Shown here: piece by piece, positions 2,386 to 56,734 of the stretch | Layout of the letters: each line of letters opens with the position of its first letter | How positions within the stretch are numbered: the stretch's first letter is position 1 | Origin: a virus | Lineage: Duplodnaviria > Caudoviricetes | Strand: one strand, 5' to 3' | Virus record (IMG/VR): IMGVR_UViG_3300010163_000003 | Location: 96,001 to 160,000 of that record | Length of the DNA: 64,000 bases | The notes under the pieces: generated by a model | The model's database searches: none | Seen by the model: only the letters and a program-made list of their open reading frames with translations | Told to the model about the DNA's origin: nothing | Translations under genes and position numbers: made by a program

Positions 2386-3393
2386 CTATCCTTTAAATAA
2401 ATCAGATTTCTTCATGGCGGCAATTATGTCTCCACCATAAGAAATAACAACTCTATCACCTTTAACTTCAGTAACGGTATGAGTTACTTCATATACAAAT
2501 GACGCGAGATATTGATTAGTATAACTATGAGCACCAGGTTTAATCTTAACTTTATCGCCAACTTTAATATTGACAACAGGAGTCGCTAAGGTATTATCGC
2601 TTTTAACGATTGTACCACCAGTAGTGGTCATAAATGTACTAAATCCAGCTTTCTTCATCTTAGCCTGTAATGCTGCTGCGTTATCTTTAACAGCAAATGC
2701 GCCTGTCTGTACTTTGTACAAGCCACCAGCATGTACAAGAATAGCATCGAATCCCGCAGCTTCTACTTTTTTAAGTTCGGCATCAGCATTAGATTTATCT
2801 TTAAAAGCACCTGTCTGTATCCTATATAAGGTTTTTGTTGTGGCTGGTTTAGAAGACGATGTTGAAACTCCCAATAATTTATTTACTTCATCAGCAATAT
2901 AACCTTGTTTACTCATTAAGTATTCGCCAGGACAATCAGTATTAGCAAACCAACGATGTACAGTCATGTTTTGTTTATCAACCTGACCAATTAAGCTCTT
3001 ATCGTTCTTCCATATAAGTTTCTTAATGTCGTTGCGCTTACAAATATCAGCTACAAGCTTAATAAGAGCGTTCATTGCTTTATCATTTACATGCCAGTTA
3101 GGAGCACCACCATCATTGGCAACTTCTATAGTAACAGCACGATTATCATTAGAGCGACTAGCTGTAGTCCATGCTCTATCTTTTTCTTCTACATACATAC
3201 CAATGCGACCTTTTGAGTCAACACCGTAATTAGAAGATGCTTGTCGTGAAGTAGGAGCAAACACATTTGCACAAGATTCTACTGTAAGATTACCAGCCAT
3301 GCAATGGATTGTAATAGTATCAATCTTATGATTACGAGGTGAAGATTTGTTAGGAGAAATTTTAGTATAATTTACTAATGGACTGTTGCTCAT
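2386..3393 (-). CDS. N-acetylmuramoyl-L-alanine amidase (Amidase_2) with two SPOR-type repeats; probable endolysin
   Basis: Zn ligand/catalytic motifs TIHCMAG, TIEVAND, TVHRWF and TDCPG. SPOR-like repeats LYRIQTGAFKDKSNA and LYKVQTGAFAVKDNA. AGGTAGGTG RBS. Confidence 0.9.
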   Translation of the reverse strand: MSNSPLVNYTKISPNKSSPRNHKIDTITIHCMAGNLTVESCANVFAPTSRQASSNYGVDSKGRIGMYVEEKDRAWTTASRSNDNRAVTIEVANDGGAPNWHVNDKAMNALIKLVADICKRNDIKKLIWKNDKSLIGQVDKQNMTVHRWFANTDCPGEYLMSKQGYIADEVNKLLGVSTSSSKPATTKTLYRIQTGAFKDKSNADAELKKVEAAGFDAILVHAGGLYKVQTGAFAVKDNAAALQAKMKKAGFSTFMTTTGGTIVKSDNTLATPVVNIKVGDKVKIKPGAHSYTNQYLASFVYEVTHTVTEVKGDRVVISYGGDIIAAMKKSDLFKG

Positions 3394-49400: not shown

Positions 49401-49684
49401 TGTTCAGAATTAGCCCACTTTTTTATGCTAGACATAACAACGCTAGCTTTATCTAACCCTTGTTCAGAAATAACATCGCCAAGTTCTAGCATAGGTTTAA
49501 TTATTCCCTTTAAAAGGCCAGATTTATATGTACCGTAACCAGCTATAGCAATTAAACCCATTTTTACGGCATTCAGTAATACACTGGCATCGTTCACGTT
49601 TTGTGGGTCATTAACGGTCGCATTATCTTTATCGTTATAATTCCCTGTTAGCGTTCTTTGCTGCAATCTGTTGTCTGATGGCAT
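43463..49684 (-). CDS. Tape-measure-position / ejection protein (2073 aa) with PD-(D/E)xK (Cas4-like) nuclease, thermonuclease-like domain and membrane segments
   Basis: GTKLHRQIE...EGEI...GYFDA...IVDIKT...QVNYY. SNase-like VDKILDNNT..IKFAGI...NVNQILLNKGHA. Gly-rich hydrophobic helices. GGAGGT RBS. Follows the tail chaperones. Confidence 0.7.
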   Translation of the reverse strand: MPSDNRLQQRTLTGNYNDKDNATVNDPQNVNDASVLLNAVKMGLIAIAGYGTYKSGLLKGIIKPMLELGDVISEQGLDKASVVMSSIKKWANSEHIDSSALAKSGRSWNIPEHSLFHKRSSSVAFDLFQDISDLTGSSSMSHFNRMKRILQDTEDDLKVMHSIIEDGLSRSTERRYSYFDTDLKKFMQRLQEVEFTATEYHPDQASIYTQKMMEEFLELRSLTAEKAREQLRTTGYRQLVLGDILEEVIDSNGIKRLQVKSNAVIDLDKAKDQMGHSFLDSINNFMGNLNHKYTDEFGHVQTMYSRGAWKNLTLDSDIRIDEVGKFIDYRMPKQDLYGFINSLAEDFGLPVVKFNPLKSGFNYLGLNKLGYKEPFAGLLSSEQISPFLTERGGRYTIGEWLAENLGDEYANKSVAVINGSAYTTTTDGRLMKIAENLHLYDTTNMTRYGYGTHQINAMREMAGLSYGEPIKESITDYEKRLGRKLTASEKLRYRTAKVLDMGFEEWQTEAKDITRSFDSATAIDETTDRFIDRMTRKIRVNGFEYDSVNEMLQAAQKYDHSDVLGNGFGEYIKNNIKYTPHTFNVTKEGYKLGTVVTDLMDKRPVDAFENLIKFVGQFGSGFDRNGMAGKYFTERTTRTWGLFDALNNQLANSVYLFGFSTQAKHSVGSYAGNLIAKRALPIYMLTQVPDMINYLSEPFFRKDDETNTGKQDNITKFLMRKVVKPLDIQAHNMMDITGATKLVKFMQDMIPGTEQITELPLIHQMGLGQTKEERKEYIENGFDPIRKGRWWGAGNTPFTGGKIEYWRPNLYRRIEADVDFSDTKWGSRKEYYNHTWYPNIFNPLAPLNYFIFDKHHYDYKHLQDRPYLKTAPIGNDIPFIGPIFASTIGTIISPPQMMHMEYQGQINVNPADEQPNPILTTGKLELNRKKFMAQAQENINSFVELQKELTANQAAYTQAMDASIYQAQKIVKYKTTNSNGVTFDVRDIIQKMPSNSVTDALYSAFPKAQSYKPKPYTPDTLPSPYGYSISGHDDSVPPYEIYSTPSGKLSVVDIPNDMNLWEVNKDLKEYSIKKIIGAKDRVELTPNLNPDIPVGNDSKAIDNAFMYNSKEELNWLADVAGLKGFITQSLITGKHNVDARTIEDSGWAYSARRSFWDENMGGLGGSLSEISRRFMPKRNTTTEYINPIRNTMPDWMPGSNYFTDFKHGDPYTKIANGEERLPGEGYERMYGINNVLDMRTGSSSIGYDKEHIIRHLLHQDFVNTQFQEDTLNKGTKLHRQIEAAWKEQGIAFKTEGEIKDERNGILGYFDAAVYDMSSPTGVGIVDIKTTSAKKLKELRKSGRPLDYHKRQVNYYLWATGNTESKGYIHYVDKENPTDSYTVGFKYDDKLLRDTLKNLNDARADIRKGIEKGVIGRGDLYSPLDQYRILADVAPYSDEFKQATAKLSREQLTDEEKKEVQQIRKRITQQKEPLRVYPYKFKTSNLVSEVVTVDKILDNNTIVTKEYGAQHAIKFAGITVTESSDLVNKKEYPRKRRKGAEKIIHNIRKELEKGPTKREAAYDEIKKHIHKGGRITIQYDADSANKFSGDSTDSIRSVVISGGRNVNQILLNKGHAKENENDDSPAGIHARYSKGEIAFGSAMETTAHSIIGNIPFIGSKIYQVRSPYEQYRDREVYGKDFQSWDHPIRDLFMPNMVDKPIANGLLGIVTGTFIGRLFGRNNFGAIMGGFVGGAIPTIGQIAFSAGSTKERDWRPNRRVQQEKVNEYVDTLKYVKNMRLFNQYADKSMAEDHFDVRQYMNSTESHGAYNKIRKQELEAYKRQVKMDFKHSDKFDFQYGKPKYMKPNMGREGIIKAVNQEIKEIQSDRKTVKVPLNAMKAIQYKNAADKTMYGYEPGKSMVDIMSALPKKDRQYFKHFMNAPEEEKDKILRVAPSYMRRALQSTWGMKPDVKPSLQEYFTQHALPNANWVGWDENTNLDDVKVKLVHKEKLDPGEFDIWQDNKNKANMTNIPIPKIDKHTNAAQIRTRLKHILGENGYDDVQISYTSALNDTQTKMEVYKDGRSDVESRIGNMNI

Positions 49685-50369
49685 CTAATACCTCCTCATC
49701 ATTCCAATGAACTCCGCCAATCAATGGGAAGTCAACTAATGTACGATGGTTCAAATCTTGTAAATTGTCTGCGAAGTAAAACATTGGGTCAATGCCATTC
49801 TTGATAAGTTCTTGTATATACTCTTCATTTTCAATATCAATTTTAGAAACGGCTTCATTAAACTCTTCGCTCTTGTCTTCAACATGCCAATCGAATCCTT
49901 TAAGCGCAGCTACCTTTTCTGCTCTTACAACTATTTGCATTAGTTTGGTCCATGTCCATGTTTCCATTTCTTCGTAAGTATATTCGGGGATAAATGCCTT
50001 TATTAAATCCATGCATTGAGTATCAAGATTGTCATATGCTTTAAATTTGCGATATTCATCTAAAATATCATTTATATCTATAAACCCAGAATATTTTTCT
50101 ATATGTTGAGCGACATATTCATTTAGTCCTGCAAAACCACAATAACAAAAATCATATTCTTCTGGGAAGACACAAGCTGTATTACATATTGCATCTTCTA
50201 TATCCATTCTATCTGAATTTTCAGCTAATATATATCTATACTCTTTTCTAGTAAGAGTTCTAAAAATAAAGTCGGTATCGCAAAAGCGGACATAAATAAT
50301 TTTATGTCCGCCATACAAGTCCTTATAATAATGTAACAGGGCAATATCGACGGCTTTTTCTTGCTTCAT
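49635..50369 (-). CDS. Tail assembly chaperone-like protein 2 (244 aa)
   Basis: FIFRTLTRKEY...EDAICNTACVFP, paralogous to the upstream gene. Position between tube genes and the tape-measure slot. Confidence 0.6.
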   Translation of the reverse strand: MKQEKAVDIALLHYYKDLYGGHKIIYVRFCDTDFIFRTLTRKEYRYILAENSDRMDIEDAICNTACVFPEEYDFCYCGFAGLNEYVAQHIEKYSGFIDINDILDEYRKFKAYDNLDTQCMDLIKAFIPEYTYEEMETWTWTKLMQIVVRAEKVAALKGFDWHVEDKSEEFNEAVSKIDIENEEYIQELIKNGIDPMFYFADNLQDLNHRTLVDFPLIGGVHWNDEEVLDAIRQQIAAKNANREL

Positions 50370-50372
50370 TAT

Positions 50373-50948
50373 TTAAAGTACCTCGATTCCATATTGCTTA
50401 GTAAACCCTGAGTTTTCCATAATAATTTGCGCTAAGGTACTAGGGTAGCCACTATCTTCTGCTGCCATAGTTTTAAAGTTATAGTTTCTAGGCCATAATA
50501 CACAAGTATGGCATATAATTTCTTCTCTGTATAATGCATCTATATTTTGAATACTAACTAATTGTTTATATTCAAAACGATTCATTGTACGGAAAACAAA
50601 ATGTTTTTCAAGTACTTGAGTGTGGAATATCTTTTCATTAGAGAATTGTTTTTTCCACAGCTCAACTTGACTGGCACCAGGACCACCTTCAAAAATAGGA
50701 TCGTCATCAATTAAATCATAATCCTCTTCTGGTTCTCCAGAATATTGAAGACTGATATCATTATAATTACTATCTGGACGATACTGAATAGTAGCTTCTC
50801 CATATTCATCATTTGCCATTTCTTGTTTCATGGCTGCATATATATCTTCACCTGTGACAGATTCAGAATCTCTTGCCGCAATTTTCTTTTGTACATTAAG
50901 TTTTTGATTAGCTGCACTCATTAAATCATTGAGTCTATCTTGTTCCAT
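50373..50948 (-). CDS. Tail assembly chaperone-like protein 1 (191 aa)
   Basis: VELWKKQF...FVFRTMNRFEY...EEIICHTCVLWP...GYPSTLAQIIMENSGF. AAGGAG RBS. Confidence 0.6.
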   Translation of the reverse strand: MEQDRLNDLMSAANQKLNVQKKIAARDSESVTGEDIYAAMKQEMANDEYGEATIQYRPDSNYNDISLQYSGEPEEDYDLIDDDPIFEGGPGASQVELWKKQFSNEKIFHTQVLEKHFVFRTMNRFEYKQLVSIQNIDALYREEIICHTCVLWPRNYNFKTMAAEDSGYPSTLAQIIMENSGFTKQYGIEVL

Positions 50949-50958
50949 AGTAATCTCC

Positions 50959-51330
50959 TTACATTAAAGTGTGTGTTTCATCGTCATATAAATTATTTAA
51001 TCTTTGTTCAATATTTTCTAATCTTATTCTTTGTTCTTCAATTAATTCTGGATCTGCATTAGAAGAACGTAATTTTTCGAGTTTATGCTCTCTATATGTT
51101 TTTTCTTTTTCAACATGCTCTATCTTTGCCATTACTAAGTAAAAACCTGAATATATACTAGCAAATGTAAATGCTGAAATAATAAGCTGTGGCATCGAGC
51201 TATAATCACAAGAACGGTGCATTTCAATCATTGCATATACAGTAATAATAAAGACAAAGAAAAATGCTACAAGACCTATTAGTTTAGACATTGCCATAAA
51301 CCTAAGTTTAAATTCTTCTTTTGTTTCCAT
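50959..51330 (-). CDS. Two-TM membrane protein, holin-like (123 aa)
   Basis: Two hydrophobic helices (LIGLVAFFFVFIITVYAMI; LIISAFTFASIYSGFYLVM) and a charged C-terminus. Adjacent to an amidase gene. Confidence 0.55.
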   Translation of the reverse strand: METKEEFKLRFMAMSKLIGLVAFFFVFIITVYAMIEMHRSCDYSSMPQLIISAFTFASIYSGFYLVMAKIEHVEKEKTYREHKLEKLRSSNADPELIEEQRIRLENIEQRLNNLYDDETHTLM

Positions 51331-51339
51331 TGTATCACC

Positions 51340-52953
51340 TTAGTTATAATCAGAATTATTTCTCCAAGCTTCTATTACTGGCACGCCAGTTTTTGATAAT
51401 ATTTGATTTTCATCTGAAGATGTTGGAATAGATGCATCTTTAGAATAATACTTATAATCTGAAGCCGCAAGACCGTTATATTCTTCATATTTATCTTCGT
51501 CTGTAGCTTCGTCAGATTCAATTACATCCCTAGCGATAAATTCATATACTTCTGATATTGGATTACCAGATGTATCTACTTCAACACTAACACTTCTCAT
51601 AAATACATCTTTAATAGTTTTAGTTATACTAGAATTTCCAAATACTATTTTAATGTCTTTGTGATTTAATCTAGCTACTTTACTTGCATTGGTATTAAAA
51701 TATGAATCATAGTGAGCATTAAATTCAGGATCTTCTTCAATTTTTATCTCATCTATAGGAGCTTCTTCTTCAATAACATCATTGGCGTTTTCATTAGCCT
51801 TTTCAACTATTTTATCCAATAAGTCTTGATTCGTGATTCCATCTTCAGTAAGCCCATTATCTTTTTGAAATTTTTTAACAATGTTTTCAACAGCTTGATC
51901 GTATAATCCATCTTTATGATCAGATGAAATAGGATATCCTGCCTTATCTAAATATTTTATAATATCTTCGATAGGAGTGTTAGTCATGTTTGGTCGTTTT
52001 TGAGATTCTGAACCAGAGGCACCGTTTTTATCAGTAAGAGGATGTTTTTGAGATTCTGAACCTGAAGTACCATGCGAATCATCAAGACCAAGGTCAGGTC
52101 TAACATAAGGCGGCTCTTCTGGTTTAGCTGGAGGATATGGAGCAGATTCAGTCCCAGAAGTTCCATTAGCATCAGTAAGAGGTTTTTTGGGAATCTCAGG
52201 ATGTTTTTGAGATTCTGAACCCGAAGTACCGTTAGCATCAGTTAATTTTGCTAATGCATTTTTAGAGCCAGAAGAAGGTTCGGCAGAATCATATTTATAT
52301 TCTTTTTTATTGTTTGAGCTTTTAACTGGAGTTGGATTAATTACCGTCTCATTAGTGGGTGGAGGAGTTGGATTTTCAGTAGTATCATTATATTTTAATC
52401 CAAATCCTTCAGCAATTCCTCCAACAACAGCCTTTACTACTTTATCTTTTTGAGAACGATAAAGATCCATGTCATCAATATCGTCAATAAAACAAGTTTC
52501 TAATAGTGCATGACTAATCCCGTATTTCTTTTTGACGGTGTTCATTACTAAAAGACCGTCTCTACGCTGTACGCCACGATTTGTGAAACCAAGATCAGAC
52601 ATACGTTTACAAATGGCATTTCCTAAACTAGTATCATTTTCTGTGCTATGCATAAGTACTTCTGTACCAGTAGTTTTACCATCACCACTTGAATCATTTG
52701 CAGATGCGTTGAAATGTATTTCAAACACATAATCTATATTATCAAGAGGCAAAGAACCGCCGTTTTTGAGAACTTTATAAGCATCATTATTTTGGTCGTA
52801 CAAAATTGGATTAATATCTTGAACTTTTTTGAGTTCTTCTTGTACCATAAGAGCAAGCTCTCTCGTAAGCACTGCTTCTTTTTCTCCACTACCTATAGCA
52901 CCAGGATCATACGGAGTACCTCCATGCCCAGAAAGAATAAGAACATTTTTCAT
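51340..52953 (-). CDS. Amidase_3 + repeat linker + peptidoglycan-binding domain + C-terminal half of a tail-tube-like fold (537 aa)
   Basis: Catalytic motifs SGHGG, KEAVL, EIHFNA and LLETCFID. PG-binding VKKFQKDNGLTEDGI. AGGGGG RBS supports the ATG at 52953 rather than the ORF track's 53022. Confidence 0.8.
   Translation of the reverse strand: MKNVLILSGHGGTPYDPGAIGSGEKEAVLTRELALMVQEELKKVQDINPILYDQNNDAYKVLKNGGSLPLDNIDYVFEIHFNASANDSSGDGKTTGTEVLMHSTENDTSLGNAICKRMSDLGFTNRGVQRRDGLLVMNTVKKKYGISHALLETCFIDDIDDMDLYRSQKDKVVKAVVGGIAEGFGLKYNDTTENPTPPPTNETVINPTPVKSSNNKKEYKYDSAEPSSGSKNALAKLTDANGTSGSESQKHPEIPKKPLTDANGTSGTESAPYPPAKPEEPPYVRPDLGLDDSHGTSGSESQKHPLTDKNGASGSESQKRPNMTNTPIEDIIKYLDKAGYPISSDHKDGLYDQAVENIVKKFQKDNGLTEDGITNQDLLDKIVEKANENANDVIEEEAPIDEIKIEEDPEFNAHYDSYFNTNASKVARLNHKDIKIVFGNSSITKTIKDVFMRSVSVEVDTSGNPISEVYEFIARDVIESDEATDEDKYEEYNGLAASDYKYYSKDASIPTSSDENQILSKTGVPVIEAWRNNSDYN
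51990..52245 (-). repeat. Four imperfect intragenic repeats encoding LTD(A/K)NG(T/A)SG(S/T)ES(QKHP)
   Basis: The DNA word TTTTTGAGATTCTGAACC recurs three times. The peptide repeats are visible in translation. Confidence 0.85.
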
Positions 52954-52988
52954 TTTATTGCCCCCTACTAGAAAAACATTTATGTCAT

Positions 52989-53834
52989 TTATTGAGTATA
53001 AGAATAATCTGGGCAAATCCATCCGTCTATTTCAACTTCAGGGTCGTCATTAAATACATGAACCCAAGTATGACCATTTGAATCTACTGTAGACTCTTTT
53101 TGTGTAACAGTTGCAATATTAACAATAGAATATAATTTTTGAGTATTTTCTCCAGGTCCAGAATAAACAATAGTATTAACAGGAAGATTAAAAGTAGCAT
53201 TAGTATATAAATGCTTTAAATATAATGCATCTATAGCCTTTCTAGTTTCTGTTCCTAATTCTCCATATTCTGAGCTTAAATCTTTGTAGTATTTTGTCTT
53301 ATATTCATTTTGAAATCTCATTAGTAAATTTTTGAGATTGTACTCAGCTTCATTATTGGGAGTATATCCAATAGTATGTAACTTATTTCTATATGTATTT
53401 TCAAGATCTGTAAGAGATTGCGTATTATCTGATTTAGATTGAGCATTTGGTTTGGAGTTATTAACCCAATCGATGTTATCTTTTAATGCTTGTTGAGTTT
53501 CATTATATTGTTCATTTGATTCCGTTTGAGATGATTTAAATATATCTGAATTTCCAAATACGGTTTGTTGTTCTGGATTTTTAATTGGCATTTTAAAAGC
53601 ACCAGTTACAACCCTATTACCAACAGCAACATCATCCCATGTACGAGAAGCATATCCATAAATAGGCTTAAGTTGCTCTTGTACTGAATAATTAATATAC
53701 CCTATTTCTGTTTGCTCTTCATCATTAAAATATATCTTTGTATCTGTACTTGAATAATATTCCTCTATGAAGAAATTCGGTTGTCGTGGTTCTTCAGGTG
53801 GGATATATTTATATGTCATAGAAGCTTCAGACAT
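52989..53834 (-). CDS. N-terminal half of a tail-tube-like fold + PG-binding-like + SH3-like domain (281 aa)
   Basis: YYSSTDTKIYFN...INYSVQEQLKPIYGYAS...VAVGNRVVTG aligns with the tube N-half. C-terminal VYSGPG...TWVHV...GWI resembles SH3b. Confidence 0.65.
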   Translation of the reverse strand: MSEASMTYKYIPPEEPRQPNFFIEEYYSSTDTKIYFNDEEQTEIGYINYSVQEQLKPIYGYASRTWDDVAVGNRVVTGAFKMPIKNPEQQTVFGNSDIFKSSQTESNEQYNETQQALKDNIDWVNNSKPNAQSKSDNTQSLTDLENTYRNKLHTIGYTPNNEAEYNLKNLLMRFQNEYKTKYYKDLSSEYGELGTETRKAIDALYLKHLYTNATFNLPVNTIVYSGPGENTQKLYSIVNIATVTQKESTVDSNGHTWVHVFNDDPEVEIDGWICPDYSYTQ

Positions 53835-53846
53835 ATATACACCTTC

Positions 53847-55742
53847 TTATCTATAGTTAAAAGTATATTTATATACTTGTTTAAAATCAATGGGCCAAAT
53901 AATTATTTCTGCCTTAGATGCTTTATAATCTTTATTGCCATTATATGACGAACAATTTATTAAATCATAATAAAATGTGTCATGTTCTTTTCCTTTATCG
54001 TCTGGATCAATCCATCTTAATGGATTAAACTCTAAAATATCAGAAACGCTTTTGTTAATAACATTACTTTTATATCTTTTATCTTTTGTTTTACTATCAT
54101 AATACTCTATTATGATAGTAAATTTTATTGTTTTAAGATTATTTTTCTGATTTTCAAATATAATATTATACGGCTCCAATATTAAAGCTGCTGGCTCATT
54201 TTGTATGCCCATACTATTTGAAAAATCATTGTATGATAAAGCATATTCTCCAGGTAACATATTGAATGAAATCTTTAAATCTTCTTTTATATTTTTGTCT
54301 TTATTAGATGTAGCATTTCCTATAAATTCCCACGTATTCCTATCGACAAGACCTACTGCATCTATTTCTAATGCGTGTTCTTTTTTAAATTTATTTACAT
54401 ATTCTAATGTATCTTCTCCATATATCCCATCAACATTTATAGTATGTTCAGGGTATATATTGTTTAAAGCATTTTGTAATATGGTAACGTAGACATTTCT
54501 ATCCCCTAATCTTACGTCAGGAAAAGAATATTGAGTTTTCATTTCTGAACCACTAAATATATCTGGAACTCTTACATATCCACCATTAACTTCATAATAT
54601 TCATTTCCATCTTTATCTTTTAAAGTTTTTAAATCAGAATTAATATATGTACCATATTTAAGTACTTTTATTATTGGAGAAGATAGATTAGGATCTCTAT
54701 ATACTTTAGCCCCATTTCTATTTAATACAACTGACTTTTTATCTTTTCTATCTTTCATTAAAGACATATATGTTCTATAATCAACATTACCAGTTGGATA
54801 TAAGTTATGATCCTTTTGGTATGTCCTAACTGCATTAGACATTGCATCTGTATAAAATCCATCGAACGAATCATAATACCTTGAATCTTTTAATGCTTGT
54901 TGTAAGTCTAAAATATCAGAACCAGACATAGCTCTATTCAATGAAGAATCATAATAATATTCCCTTGATGGCATTAATCTATTTAATGGAGTATTATAAA
55001 GTTTTCCTGCATAATTATAATCTCTGTATTCGCTATTAACTCCATCTTCTGGAGAACTACCCCCATTCCATGGCCATGGAACACCATTGTTAAAATCTTT
55101 ATTTGTGTTAATAGGTGTTTTATTTACTTTATCTTTTATGGCGTTTTCTTTATTTAATATATCATTCCATGATACATTAGAATCTACAACATAAAACCTT
55201 TGTGAGATAGATTCTTTTTGAGTAGCAGAACCAGAATTCCCATTTGAACTAAATATATTAATAGCTTGAAATGTCTCAATGTCTCGCGCCACAAAACTAA
55301 ATGTATTTTCTGTAAACAAATCTTGTACTGAAATAGTTTGAGCTTCATCTGTAAAATCAATACCAAACATGTACATAACAACAGCGCTACCATATTCGTT
55401 AGCAGATACAATCATTATATCGAATAATGGCAATTCATCTGCTTTCAGGTCTTTCATATTTGCTAAATATGAAACTTCTGCTTGAACATCTCTAAGCCAA
55501 TGTTGATTTATCAATGTAAATATTATAGTACCAGCGAATATACGAGAACCTCTAGTAACACCATTTATATTTGTTCTGCCTATATTTATTACAGGCTTTT
55601 TGTTTCTATACATAGAATAACTAATAGTAGTTACTGAGCCTAATGTAATAGGTGTGCATCCTGGAAGCATCATAAAGGCAATAGTGTCAGTACCAGAATA
55701 TGATTGATAAAATTTAGATAGTATATTAGCCAATATAGTCAC
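53847..55742 (-). CDS. Tail-tube paralogue (probable tube initiator) fused to PG-binding and SH3-like domains (631 aa)
   Basis: SYSGTD...TISYSMYRNKKPV...RGSRIFAGTIIF...ADELPLFDI...FVARD matches the tube. Two PG_binding_1-like repeats. The start may be the TTG at 55733. Confidence 0.75.
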   Translation of the reverse strand: MTILANILSKFYQSYSGTDTIAFMMLPGCTPITLGSVTTISYSMYRNKKPVINIGRTNINGVTRGSRIFAGTIIFTLINQHWLRDVQAEVSYLANMKDLKADELPLFDIMIVSANEYGSAVVMYMFGIDFTDEAQTISVQDLFTENTFSFVARDIETFQAINIFSSNGNSGSATQKESISQRFYVVDSNVSWNDILNKENAIKDKVNKTPINTNKDFNNGVPWPWNGGSSPEDGVNSEYRDYNYAGKLYNTPLNRLMPSREYYYDSSLNRAMSGSDILDLQQALKDSRYYDSFDGFYTDAMSNAVRTYQKDHNLYPTGNVDYRTYMSLMKDRKDKKSVVLNRNGAKVYRDPNLSSPIIKVLKYGTYINSDLKTLKDKDGNEYYEVNGGYVRVPDIFSGSEMKTQYSFPDVRLGDRNVYVTILQNALNNIYPEHTINVDGIYGEDTLEYVNKFKKEHALEIDAVGLVDRNTWEFIGNATSNKDKNIKEDLKISFNMLPGEYALSYNDFSNSMGIQNEPAALILEPYNIIFENQKNNLKTIKFTIIIEYYDSKTKDKRYKSNVINKSVSDILEFNPLRWIDPDDKGKEHDTFYYDLINCSSYNGNKDYKASKAEIIIWPIDFKQVYKYTFNYR

Positions 55743-55762: not shown

Positions 55763-55791
55763 ATTATATCATATAATGAAACAAGAGCCAA
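55763..55791 (-). promoter_or_regulatory. Candidate sigma-A-type promoter (TTGGCT-17 bp-TATAAT with extended -10 TG)
   Basis: TG-A-TATAAT at 55771-55763, 17-nt spacer, weak -35 inside the terminator stem. The region is AT-rich, so chance is possible. Confidence 0.3.
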
Positions 55792-55814
55792 GGTTTTTTG
55801 CAACCTTGGCTCTT
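55783..55814 (-). terminator. Intrinsic terminator after the major tail tube gene
   Basis: Perfect 13-bp stem AAGAGCCAAGGTT / AACCTTGGCTCTT with a 6-nt loop, followed by GTTTCATT on the minus strand. Confidence 0.7.
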
Positions 55815-55828
55815 TAAATATTTTACAA

Positions 55829-56734
55829 TTAGGTATTATTAGTGGTGCTAGCATCATAATCTGTTGGCATAACACCGCGAATATTGCCAGCTTTGTCACG
55901 AGTATACACTCCACGAACCAGTGGACTCATACGACGCGCAATCCATGTTACTTGACGCGCCATAACTACTGTGTCAATAGACGCACCAGAACTTTCATTT
56001 AATATATCTACGTCATAAATCTTCTGGAAAGCTGTATGGCCATATTCAGAAGCAAACGTAAGAGTAATATCAAATGGCGGGAGCGTATCAGCATATACGA
56101 TATTTTCGCCACGAATTGGAGCAAAACCAGCGGGAACATAAATTTCATCACCAGTATTAGCATCCCATTCAGAGACTAATCCATCACTAGCATAGCTAAG
56201 AGGACTATTATTAGACCCTTTAGCTGTTTGAGCACTAATTGCATTAGTAAACTCACCTGCGCCAGTAGAACCAAATGAAAATCCATAACCATCACGATCA
56301 TTATTGCTAATGTCGGCAAGAGAATCGTGAGCCTCTCCAGTATTGTTGCTCTTATAAGTGCCATTTTGTACAGCACTTACTGTCTCATTCCATTTGATAA
56401 TATCAAGTGCATTCCTGAAATCTTCGTTAAGCGCAAGCTTATTATTAGCAGCCGCAGTAAACATAGCAGATGGGGCTATTTCATTCCATACACGCTGTAA
56501 AGTAGCTACTAAAGAATCGTGGTCAAACACTGCAAATACCATAGAACCAGCGAGTCCGCGCTTGCCACGAGAGAAAGAACGAGCATCAGGAGAACCACAG
56601 GTGAATACTGGAGCTTTATCCCTTTGGATAGCCCACGAAATTTGCTGAAGCTCACCGATTACTTGGTTAGCAAAGGTGGCAACCAAGTCAGCGCCGGAAA
56701 AGCTTGTTAAAGTTTGAATGGTTGGGCTTGCCAT
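55829..56734 (-). CDS. Major tail tube protein (301 aa)
   Basis: Directly after the sheath, strong AAGGAGG RBS. SFSGADLVATF...GELQQISW...RSFSRGKRGLAGSMVF...YADTLPPFDITL...WIAR. Confidence 0.8.
   Translation of the reverse strand: MASPTIQTLTSFSGADLVATFANQVIGELQQISWAIQRDKAPVFTCGSPDARSFSRGKRGLAGSMVFAVFDHDSLVATLQRVWNEIAPSAMFTAAANNKLALNEDFRNALDIIKWNETVSAVQNGTYKSNNTGEAHDSLADISNNDRDGYGFSFGSTGAGEFTNAISAQTAKGSNNSPLSYASDGLVSEWDANTGDEIYVPAGFAPIRGENIVYADTLPPFDITLTFASEYGHTAFQKIYDVDILNESSGASIDTVVMARQVTWIARRMSPLVRGVYTRDKAGNIRGVMPTDYDASTTNNT

Follow-up and report, generated by a model that had tools for sequence, protein, structure and literature searches.

Can one subunit of a phage tail tube be encoded by two genes, and what would the two products do together? 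The question is raised by a locus in a 64,000-nt stretch of DNA from a tailed phage (IMG/VR record IMGVR_UViG_3300010163_000003, positions 96,001 to 160,000; hereafter the window), which is part of a complete jumbo-phage record of 218,431 bp with direct terminal repeats. A first-pass annotation had noticed there that a 281-aa open reading frame (ORF281) holds only the N-terminal half (N-half) of a tail-tube fold, and that the matching C-terminal half (C-half) ends the next ORF, after an Amidase_3 domain, repeats and a peptidoglycan (PG)-binding domain. In our analysis both observations held. As the joint best explanation, to which we assign a probability of about 0.7, we propose that the third tube paralog of this 0305phi8-36-like jumbo myophage is made of two separately translated genes, whose products would assemble in trans, sit at the distal end of the tail tube and, in this phage, bring a lysin that acts at entry. 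The two genes and their parts are:

52989-53834, minus strand: N-half gene ORF281 (281 aa; ORF list), with the tube N-half, a PG-binding-like three-helix module and a small SH3-like barrel
53550-53789, minus strand: tube-fold N-half, residues ~16-95, with the motifs FFIEEYY, GYASRTWDD and GNRVVTGAF (phrog_33096, E 1.2e-18; hidden Markov model (HMM), independent E-value (iE) 1e-52)
53010-53417, minus strand: helical PG_binding_1-like module (residues ~140-209) and SH3-like barrel (~214-273), from an AlphaFold2 (AF2) model
52961-52966, minus strand: Shine-Dalgarno (SD)-like AGGGGG, eight bases before the ATG at 52953 (direct reading)
51340-52953, minus strand: C-half gene, 537 aa from the ATG at 52953 (ORF537; ORF list and sequence)
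52411-52944, minus strand: Amidase_3 domain (N-acetylmuramoyl-L-alanine amidase, PF01520) with the motifs GHGG, GEKEA, EIHFNA and LLETCF
52003-52245, minus strand: four degenerate peptide repeats, L(T/D)DxxG(T/A)SG(S/T)ES, in a Pro-rich linker (regular expression on the translation)
51811-51972, minus strand: PG_binding_1 domain (PF01471, E 6.3e-10)
51439-51765, minus strand: tube-fold C-half and conserved acidic tail, residues 397-505, with the motifs HYDSYF, HKDIKIVFG and YEFIARD (HMM iE 7.5e-50)

The homology of both halves to tube paralogs is far beyond chance. The cultured relatives, all from Bacillus phages, are single chains, namely 0305phi8-36 gp142, WH1 gp099 and KLEB27-3 gp028. The gp142 protein aligned with ORF281 residues 21-85 at 45% identity over 65 residues (E 2e-15) and its C-terminus matched ORF537 residues 442-477 (E 1e-4), while WH1 gp099 matched the same C-half at 43% identity (E 6e-6). 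The two half-specific HMMs, whose values for the window are listed above, both found their matches within one frame in 0305phi8-36 and in WH1, and the N-half HMM also matched the major tube protein of the window (5.7e-4) and its second tube paralog (3.7e-3). Both ORF halves could be aligned with the corresponding halves of these two proteins, with motifs in common. The tail module in which all of them lie contains:

43.4-59.6 kb, minus strand: contractile-tail module (ORF list, Pfam and PHROG)
55829-56734, minus strand: major tail tube protein, 301 aa (phrog_9206, E 2.8e-57)
53847-55742, minus strand: second tube paralog, 631 aa, tube domain unsplit and two PG_binding_1 domains after it (phrog_34314, E 4.5e-58; phrog_9206, E 1.5e-31; PF01471, E 5e-20)

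The family of the major tube protein, phrog_9206, is that of 0305phi8-36 gp140, which is annotated 'tail tube' in its record, and the major tube and the second paralog are linked to each other via the PHROG families 9206 and 34314. The order of genes in the module is a 919-aa sheath, the 301-aa major tube, the 631-aa second paralog, ORF281 and the ORF ending at 51340, followed by a 123-aa membrane protein, two chaperone-like paralogs and a 2073-aa virion protein. This order agrees with that of 0305phi8-36, WH1 and KLEB27-3; in the first of these phages it runs from the sheath gp139 through the tube gp140, the tube paralog gp141 and gp142 to the chaperonins gp143 and gp144 and the giant proteins gp145 and gp146. 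The gp142 protein is recorded as a virion protein by mass spectrometry in the annotation of its record. The gp142-type single-chain paralogs are thus the closest known proteins: they occupy the same slot of the tail module, their N-terminus resembles ORF281 and their C-terminus ORF537, and they also have a segment inserted between the halves. They differ in being one polypeptide, in having no amidase and in falling, on the family tree, into a clade of their own whose members are all fused.

To what fold do the two halves belong? Neither Pfam nor NCBIfam, both searched, has a family for either half, and a sequence profile of the fused forms found no relative among PDB sequences. Representatives with both halves in one chain numbered 21, all more distant from the window, and ranged from 169 aa (P0250) to 915 aa (P0256); for fold tests the minimal fused homologue P0250 stood in for the window's own pair. 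In its AF2 model (predicted local distance difference test, pLDDT, 71) the N-half corresponds to strands at residues 36-87 and a helix at 93-105, and the C-half to strands at 123-165, with the segment homologous to the ORF281 N-half folded. A Foldseek search with this model gave 27 matches at E<=1e-3, and all but one of those listed were labelled tail-tube, Hcp or tail-assembly; the targets, at E 1e-6 to 1e-3, included the tubes of phage 812 (E 1e-6), AFP, diffocin, phiCD508 and PVC, as well as Hcp proteins. VIA-align superposed P0250 on the phiCD508 tube with a Z score of 11.1 and a root-mean-square deviation of 4.3 over 121 aligned residues. The alignment covered P0250 residues 15-169, hence both halves, and the top 50 rows were all tube or Hcp proteins. 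From these structural matches to the predicted model we conclude that the family of the split paralog has the tube fold. The point of the split, or of the insertion, is the surface loop after the alpha-helix of the fold. In single-chain relatives the same loop carries inserted wall-binding or wall-cutting domains, and in our alignment the major tube protein of the window has an insertion of ~100 residues between its N-half and C-half blocks, at the same place where the third paralog splits.

The model of ORF281 by itself looked different in its two parts. The conserved N-half had pLDDT <40 and hardly any secondary structure, which would fit the need for a partner. The remainder was modelled as three helices followed by six strands, with pLDDT 75-84 within these modules. 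Precomputed labels of ORF281 homologues include PF01471 and PF08239; the PG-binding-like and SH3-like part of the window's own copy gave no significant Pfam match, and the Foldseek search with the ORF281 model returned nothing at E<=1e-3 and, at most, weak SH3/Tudor-like rows, thus 'SH3-like' stays a weak label.

To see how widely the two-gene arrangement occurs, we read 26 related loci (about 21 distinct; from assemblies, IMG/VR and metagenomes) and two more distant ones, L033 and L034, 28 in total. A separate C-half ORF was present in all 28, at ~40-60% identity. In 25 of the first 26 loci the halves were adjacent or overlapping, and a single inserted gene lay between them in the remaining one, L022; over the 28 loci the two genes were adjacent in 27. 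At every junction a stop codon was present together with a GGAGG-like SD site and an ATG; an ATGA or a spacer of 1-17 nt was common. The frame of the C-half gene relative to the N-half gene was -1 in eight loci and in the window, +1 in 11, and the same after a TAA in seven. Beyond these loci, a search within one size class gave 251 homologues of ORF281 at E<=1e-3; among the 120 listed, lengths were 170-302 aa, mostly 250-285, and many were on contigs of 200-233 kb. All 121 N-family proteins checked contained the N-half and none of them contained the C-half. Conversely, the C-half profile, run against 1.84 billion representatives, gave 149 matches, the best 38 of which (E<=1e-25) were all without an N-half. 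Two much more distant C-half genes, P0192 and P0172, likewise had an N-half gene directly upstream. A search for longer relatives of ORF281, in which fused forms were sought, returned only P0126, in which the N-half gene carries a Peptidase_M15 domain and still has a separate C-half gene behind it. The two-gene split is therefore clade-wide in related uncultured phages, and only the amidase is particular to the phage of the window. Whether homologues are single ORFs, a question that the first-pass annotation had posed, has accordingly two answers: those of the cultured Bacillus phages and the 21 fused representatives are, and those of the 28 related metagenomic loci are split.

When cultured phages with the split form were sought, the short C-half gene P0124 matched nothing by tblastn in 50,697 phage records, and the six records matched by ORF281 were all fused forms or partial matches. 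No IMG/VR relatives of WH1 gp099 were found when sought as a source of a foldable fused form. A quick tree built from the two halves joined end to end placed the proteins of the Bacillus phages in an all-fused clade, and the other clade comprised 29 split and eight fused rows. At least three changes of state were required, two of them forced by well-supported branches; the alignment was short and the root not inferred, so the tree is indicative only. It suggests that fission or re-fusion happened repeatedly.

Do the two products still work together? The tube-derived segments are the best-conserved parts of both proteins, as judged by invariant columns; for the C-half, the mean column identity was 61% over 22 sequences, and the window copy also matched the C-terminus of phrog_36850 (E 3.5e-7). 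Co-folding of the halves, which the first-pass annotation had proposed as a check, was carried out with ORF281 residues 1-130 and the C-half. The pair scored 0.32, compared with 0.01 for the best of three controls, and the runs agreed in at least 64% of contacts with partner pLDDT of at least 53. Of 80 solved complexes, 58 reached the mark used for such scores, as did two of 110 mismatched pairs; only seven of the 80, and both of the passing mismatches, did so at 0.60 or less, hence the score weakly favours association. We suggest that the first product, with its tube N-half, PG-binding-like module and SH3-like module, and the second, with Amidase_3, repeat linker, PG_binding_1, tube C-half and acidic tail, would associate by beta-sheet complementation and so rebuild one tube-fold protomer in trans. 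Among the three readings offered by the first-pass annotation, a heterodimeric tube assembled in trans that displays a muralytic enzyme is the one that our data support best, with the assembly itself kept at the level of a model.

The alternative that survives best, which we nevertheless consider unlikely, is that the halves have ceased to form a tube fold together. The second product would then be a wall-targeted lysin or endolysin with a docking or leftover C-half, and the first a wall-binding decoration. Besides the weak co-fold score, it could be argued for this alternative that complete wall-binding modules are present on both products and that PHROG groups the amidase part with endolysins. 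However, it is the tube-derived segments that are best conserved, the genes stay adjacent in nearly all loci, short C-half genes free of any enzyme are the rule, and fused forms recur within the split clade. Conservation, adjacency and the recurrent fused forms suggest that the two parts still work as a unit.

Far less probable is that recoding, i.e. a programmed -1 frameshift, stop-codon readthrough or ribosomal bypass, joins the two ORFs into a full-length tube paralog with an inserted enzyme. On re-reading the sequence we found the junction as first described: ORF281 stops with a TAA at 52989-52991, the downstream frame is -1 relative to it and open from 53031, and the C-half gene has its own ribosome-binding site and ATG at 52953. 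The resulting 40-nt overlap across the end of ORF281 would permit recoding, as would, in seven relatives, the presence of both halves in one frame with a single TAA between them. Inspection of the overlap (52992-53031) by eye, however, revealed no slippery heptamer of the form X XXY YYZ, and its translation in the window, MDLPRLFLYSINDINVFLVGGNK, has no counterpart in relatives. The frame relation changes among relatives with an SD site and ATG kept at every junction, a gene of 741 nt separates the halves in L022, and in the window Amidase_3 begins at residue 4 counted from the ATG at 52953. The frameshift fusion considered by the first-pass annotation was thus abandoned, and so was its third reading, a recent gene split or single-base error. 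The latter, which would be confined to this one record, either as an indel from sequencing or assembly or as a very recent break on the way to a pseudogene, has hardly any probability left: one base within 52992-53031 would join the frames, but the layout of two genes across the 28 loci and in distant branches, the varying frames, the strong conservation of both halves and the good SD site and ATG of the second gene show that it is neither an error nor a recent break. A split intein was also considered and rejected; no intein family was present among the Pfam matches of either product or of the relatives, and the first gene ends in the SH3-like barrel.

The start of the C-half gene deserves a remark. 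The longest ORF begins with the ATG at 53022 and would encode 560 aa; in this form it is database entry P0279, with one member on one contig. The 537-aa product is more plausible, since AGGGGG precedes the ATG at 52953 and Amidase_3 starts at residue 4. Entry P0279 also carries the precomputed label PF27529.1.

PF01520 scored 75.1 bits in the C-half gene, with a cut-off of 27, and covered profile positions 1-173 of 174; in a genome-wide search it was the sole Amidase_3 of the genome, at 77.6 bits. By inspection the motifs GHGG (H10), GEKEA (E24), EIHFNA (H80) and LLETCF (E152) are present, and their His and Glu residues are presumably the zinc-binding and catalytic ones of the family. The domain could be aligned to the solved endolysin 9jzo, in which two of the four motifs align. 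Among proteins of 295-940 aa, the window's own was the only one found to join Amidase_3 and the C-half. Downstream of the amidase, the PG_binding_1 domain can be aligned to the corresponding PG-binding domain in short C-half genes. The peptide repeats, under which a tandem array at the DNA level was looked for and not found, occupy the place of a conserved N-terminal IPELTNYEYSELSYNS-like motif in the short C-half genes of relatives, and may have arisen through duplication of such a motif.

Where in the tail would the rebuilt protomer be? Large wall-binding or enzymatic insertions seem unlikely to be accommodated under the sheath along the tube, and could be accommodated at its distal end. For phage 812 it is described that hub and tube initiator cross the wall at the tip of the tube and that one domain of the hub degrades peptidoglycan (PMC13433997). 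The presumed poor fit of such insertions under the sheath, taken together with this analogy, leads us to regard the split paralog as a probable ring at the far end of the tube, with wall-binding modules and, in this phage, also an amidase. One further element of the tail module bears on this placement:

55783-55814, minus strand: terminator-like hairpin with a 13-bp stem, directly 3' of the gene for the major tube, ahead of the paralogs (pattern scan)

The hairpin, whose function is presumed, fits a lower expression of the paralogs, and a minor paralog with wall-directed domains, encoded after such a hairpin, would be suited to an initiator ring. A promoter-like site (10/12 matches) at 55763-55791 on the minus strand overlaps the hairpin, which may set the ratio of the major tube to the minor paralogs. 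Thus, in the mechanism that we propose, the rebuilt protomer would form a minor, initiator- or adaptor-like ring where the tube ends distally at the baseplate; after contraction the ring would bring its wall-binding modules, here with six amidases, into the peptidoglycan, where Amidase_3 would act as a virion-associated lysin.

The window also encodes a 335-aa Amidase_2 protein (2386-3393, minus strand), with two SPOR-like repeats seen by eye and an SH3-like tail, among structural-looking genes. It is probably the endolysin of the phage. With this separate candidate at hand, a role of Amidase_3 in entry is more likely than one in lysis, and the tube-linked Amidase_3 probably helps the tail tip to cross the host wall.

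Several points weigh against the distal-ring reading as a whole. The low confidence of the N-half in the ORF281 model may stem from its shallow alignment of 12 rows; the co-fold signal is weak, and we infer, rather than observe, the binding of the two products to each other. Our placement in the tail was argued by analogy and gene order, and the genes are located beside the tube gene, not in the baseplate cluster. The amidase could be a second endolysin instead of an entry enzyme. Finally, an error in the window's own record is excluded by conservation alone.

The closest functional analogues, by comparison, would be tube initiators and virion-associated lysins. T4 gp48/gp54 and Afp7/Pvc7 are tube initiator or adaptor rings. 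Like the proposed protomer, such proteins, of which phage 812 gp113 is the example in PMC13433997, have the tube fold, are minor components, build a ring that lies between the hub and the tube, and enter the wall with the tube tip. The model of the fused homologue matched tube-fold chains of baseplate as well as tube structures. In contrast to the window pair, whose membership of this group we infer, the known rings have one chain per protomer and their genes are usually in the baseplate cluster. To our knowledge, no tube initiator or adaptor is split or carries an amidase. Virion-associated lysins, such as T4 gp5, the lysin domains of tape measures and the hub cleaver of phage 812, are similar in that a peptidoglycan hydrolase is placed in a part of the tail that reaches the wall at entry (PMC6116005, PMC13433997). 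The carriers listed for them in a review comprise tape measure proteins, central fibres, tip knobs, puncturing devices and proteins of the inner capsid, with tape measures, tip knobs and puncturing devices as the usual ones; no tube-fold subunit is on the list (PMC6116005). A tube ring made from two different polypeptides does exist in the Hcp2-Hcp3 heterohexamer of the Bacteroides fragilis type VI secretion system (PDB 9vne); however, each of its chains is a complete tube fold, whereas the chains of the window would each give half of one. Our literature search found no description of a split tube-fold gene or of a tube-fold lysin carrier, which is weak evidence given its partial coverage.

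The amidase is one of several enzymes found at the break point. In L008 a Peptidase_M15 domain is attached to the N-half gene. The gene inserted between the halves in L022 (L022:4795-5535) encodes a 246-aa Peptidase_C1 of the papain family, which is uncommon in phage tail modules. In the fused P0256, NlpC/P60, Peptidase_M23 and PG_binding_1 domains are inserted between the halves. The occurrence of M15, C1, NlpC/P60 with M23, and Amidase_3 at the same site indicates that the break point is a recurrent capture site for wall enzymes. Another domain was noticed in P0191, a metagenomic C-half gene of 422 aa, in which the tube C-half is followed by a nuclease domain of the AHH (HNH/EndoVII-type) kind, a toxin-like domain on a putative subunit of a tube ring. 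A more far-reaching picture, for and against which we hold the balance to be even, is that of a naturally split protomer whose halves would be useless alone and of which six pairs, twelve chains in all, would close into a ring at the tip of the tail; its loop, cut and rejoined repeatedly, would have captured wall enzymes and a nuclease toxin domain, so that the ring would serve as a modular 'enzyme holder'.

Some neighbouring genes were also examined. Directly after the C-half gene, a 123-aa membrane/coiled-coil protein is encoded at 50959-51330 (minus strand), and counterparts of 122-140 aa follow the C-half gene in most relatives, with L008 and 0305phi8-36 as exceptions. The possibility that this protein is a holin acquired together with the amidase was rejected because relatives free of the amidase carry counterparts. 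The two chaperone-like genes (191 and 244 aa; 49635-50948, minus strand) are paralogs of each other, with cross-matches to phrog_29362 and phrog_29368, and the second overlaps the start of the gene for the 2073-aa protein by 50 nt.

Proteins with the tube fold, i.e. phage tubes, Hcp and tube initiators, are normally single chains. The conserved natural fission described here, inside the tube fold, shows where this fold tolerates a break and, if the proposed assembly is true, would be a case of natural fragment complementation in a load-bearing part of the virion. For annotation, the finding explains two families of 'hypothetical protein', one like phrog_33096 and the other like phrog_36850, that are encoded by a large clade of uncultured phages of ~200 kb, and it warns against 'repairing' the gene pair as a frameshift. 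Since the break is also a site of repeated gain of wall enzymes, it points to a tube-ring carrier of lysins that is absent from the list of carriers in PMC6116005.

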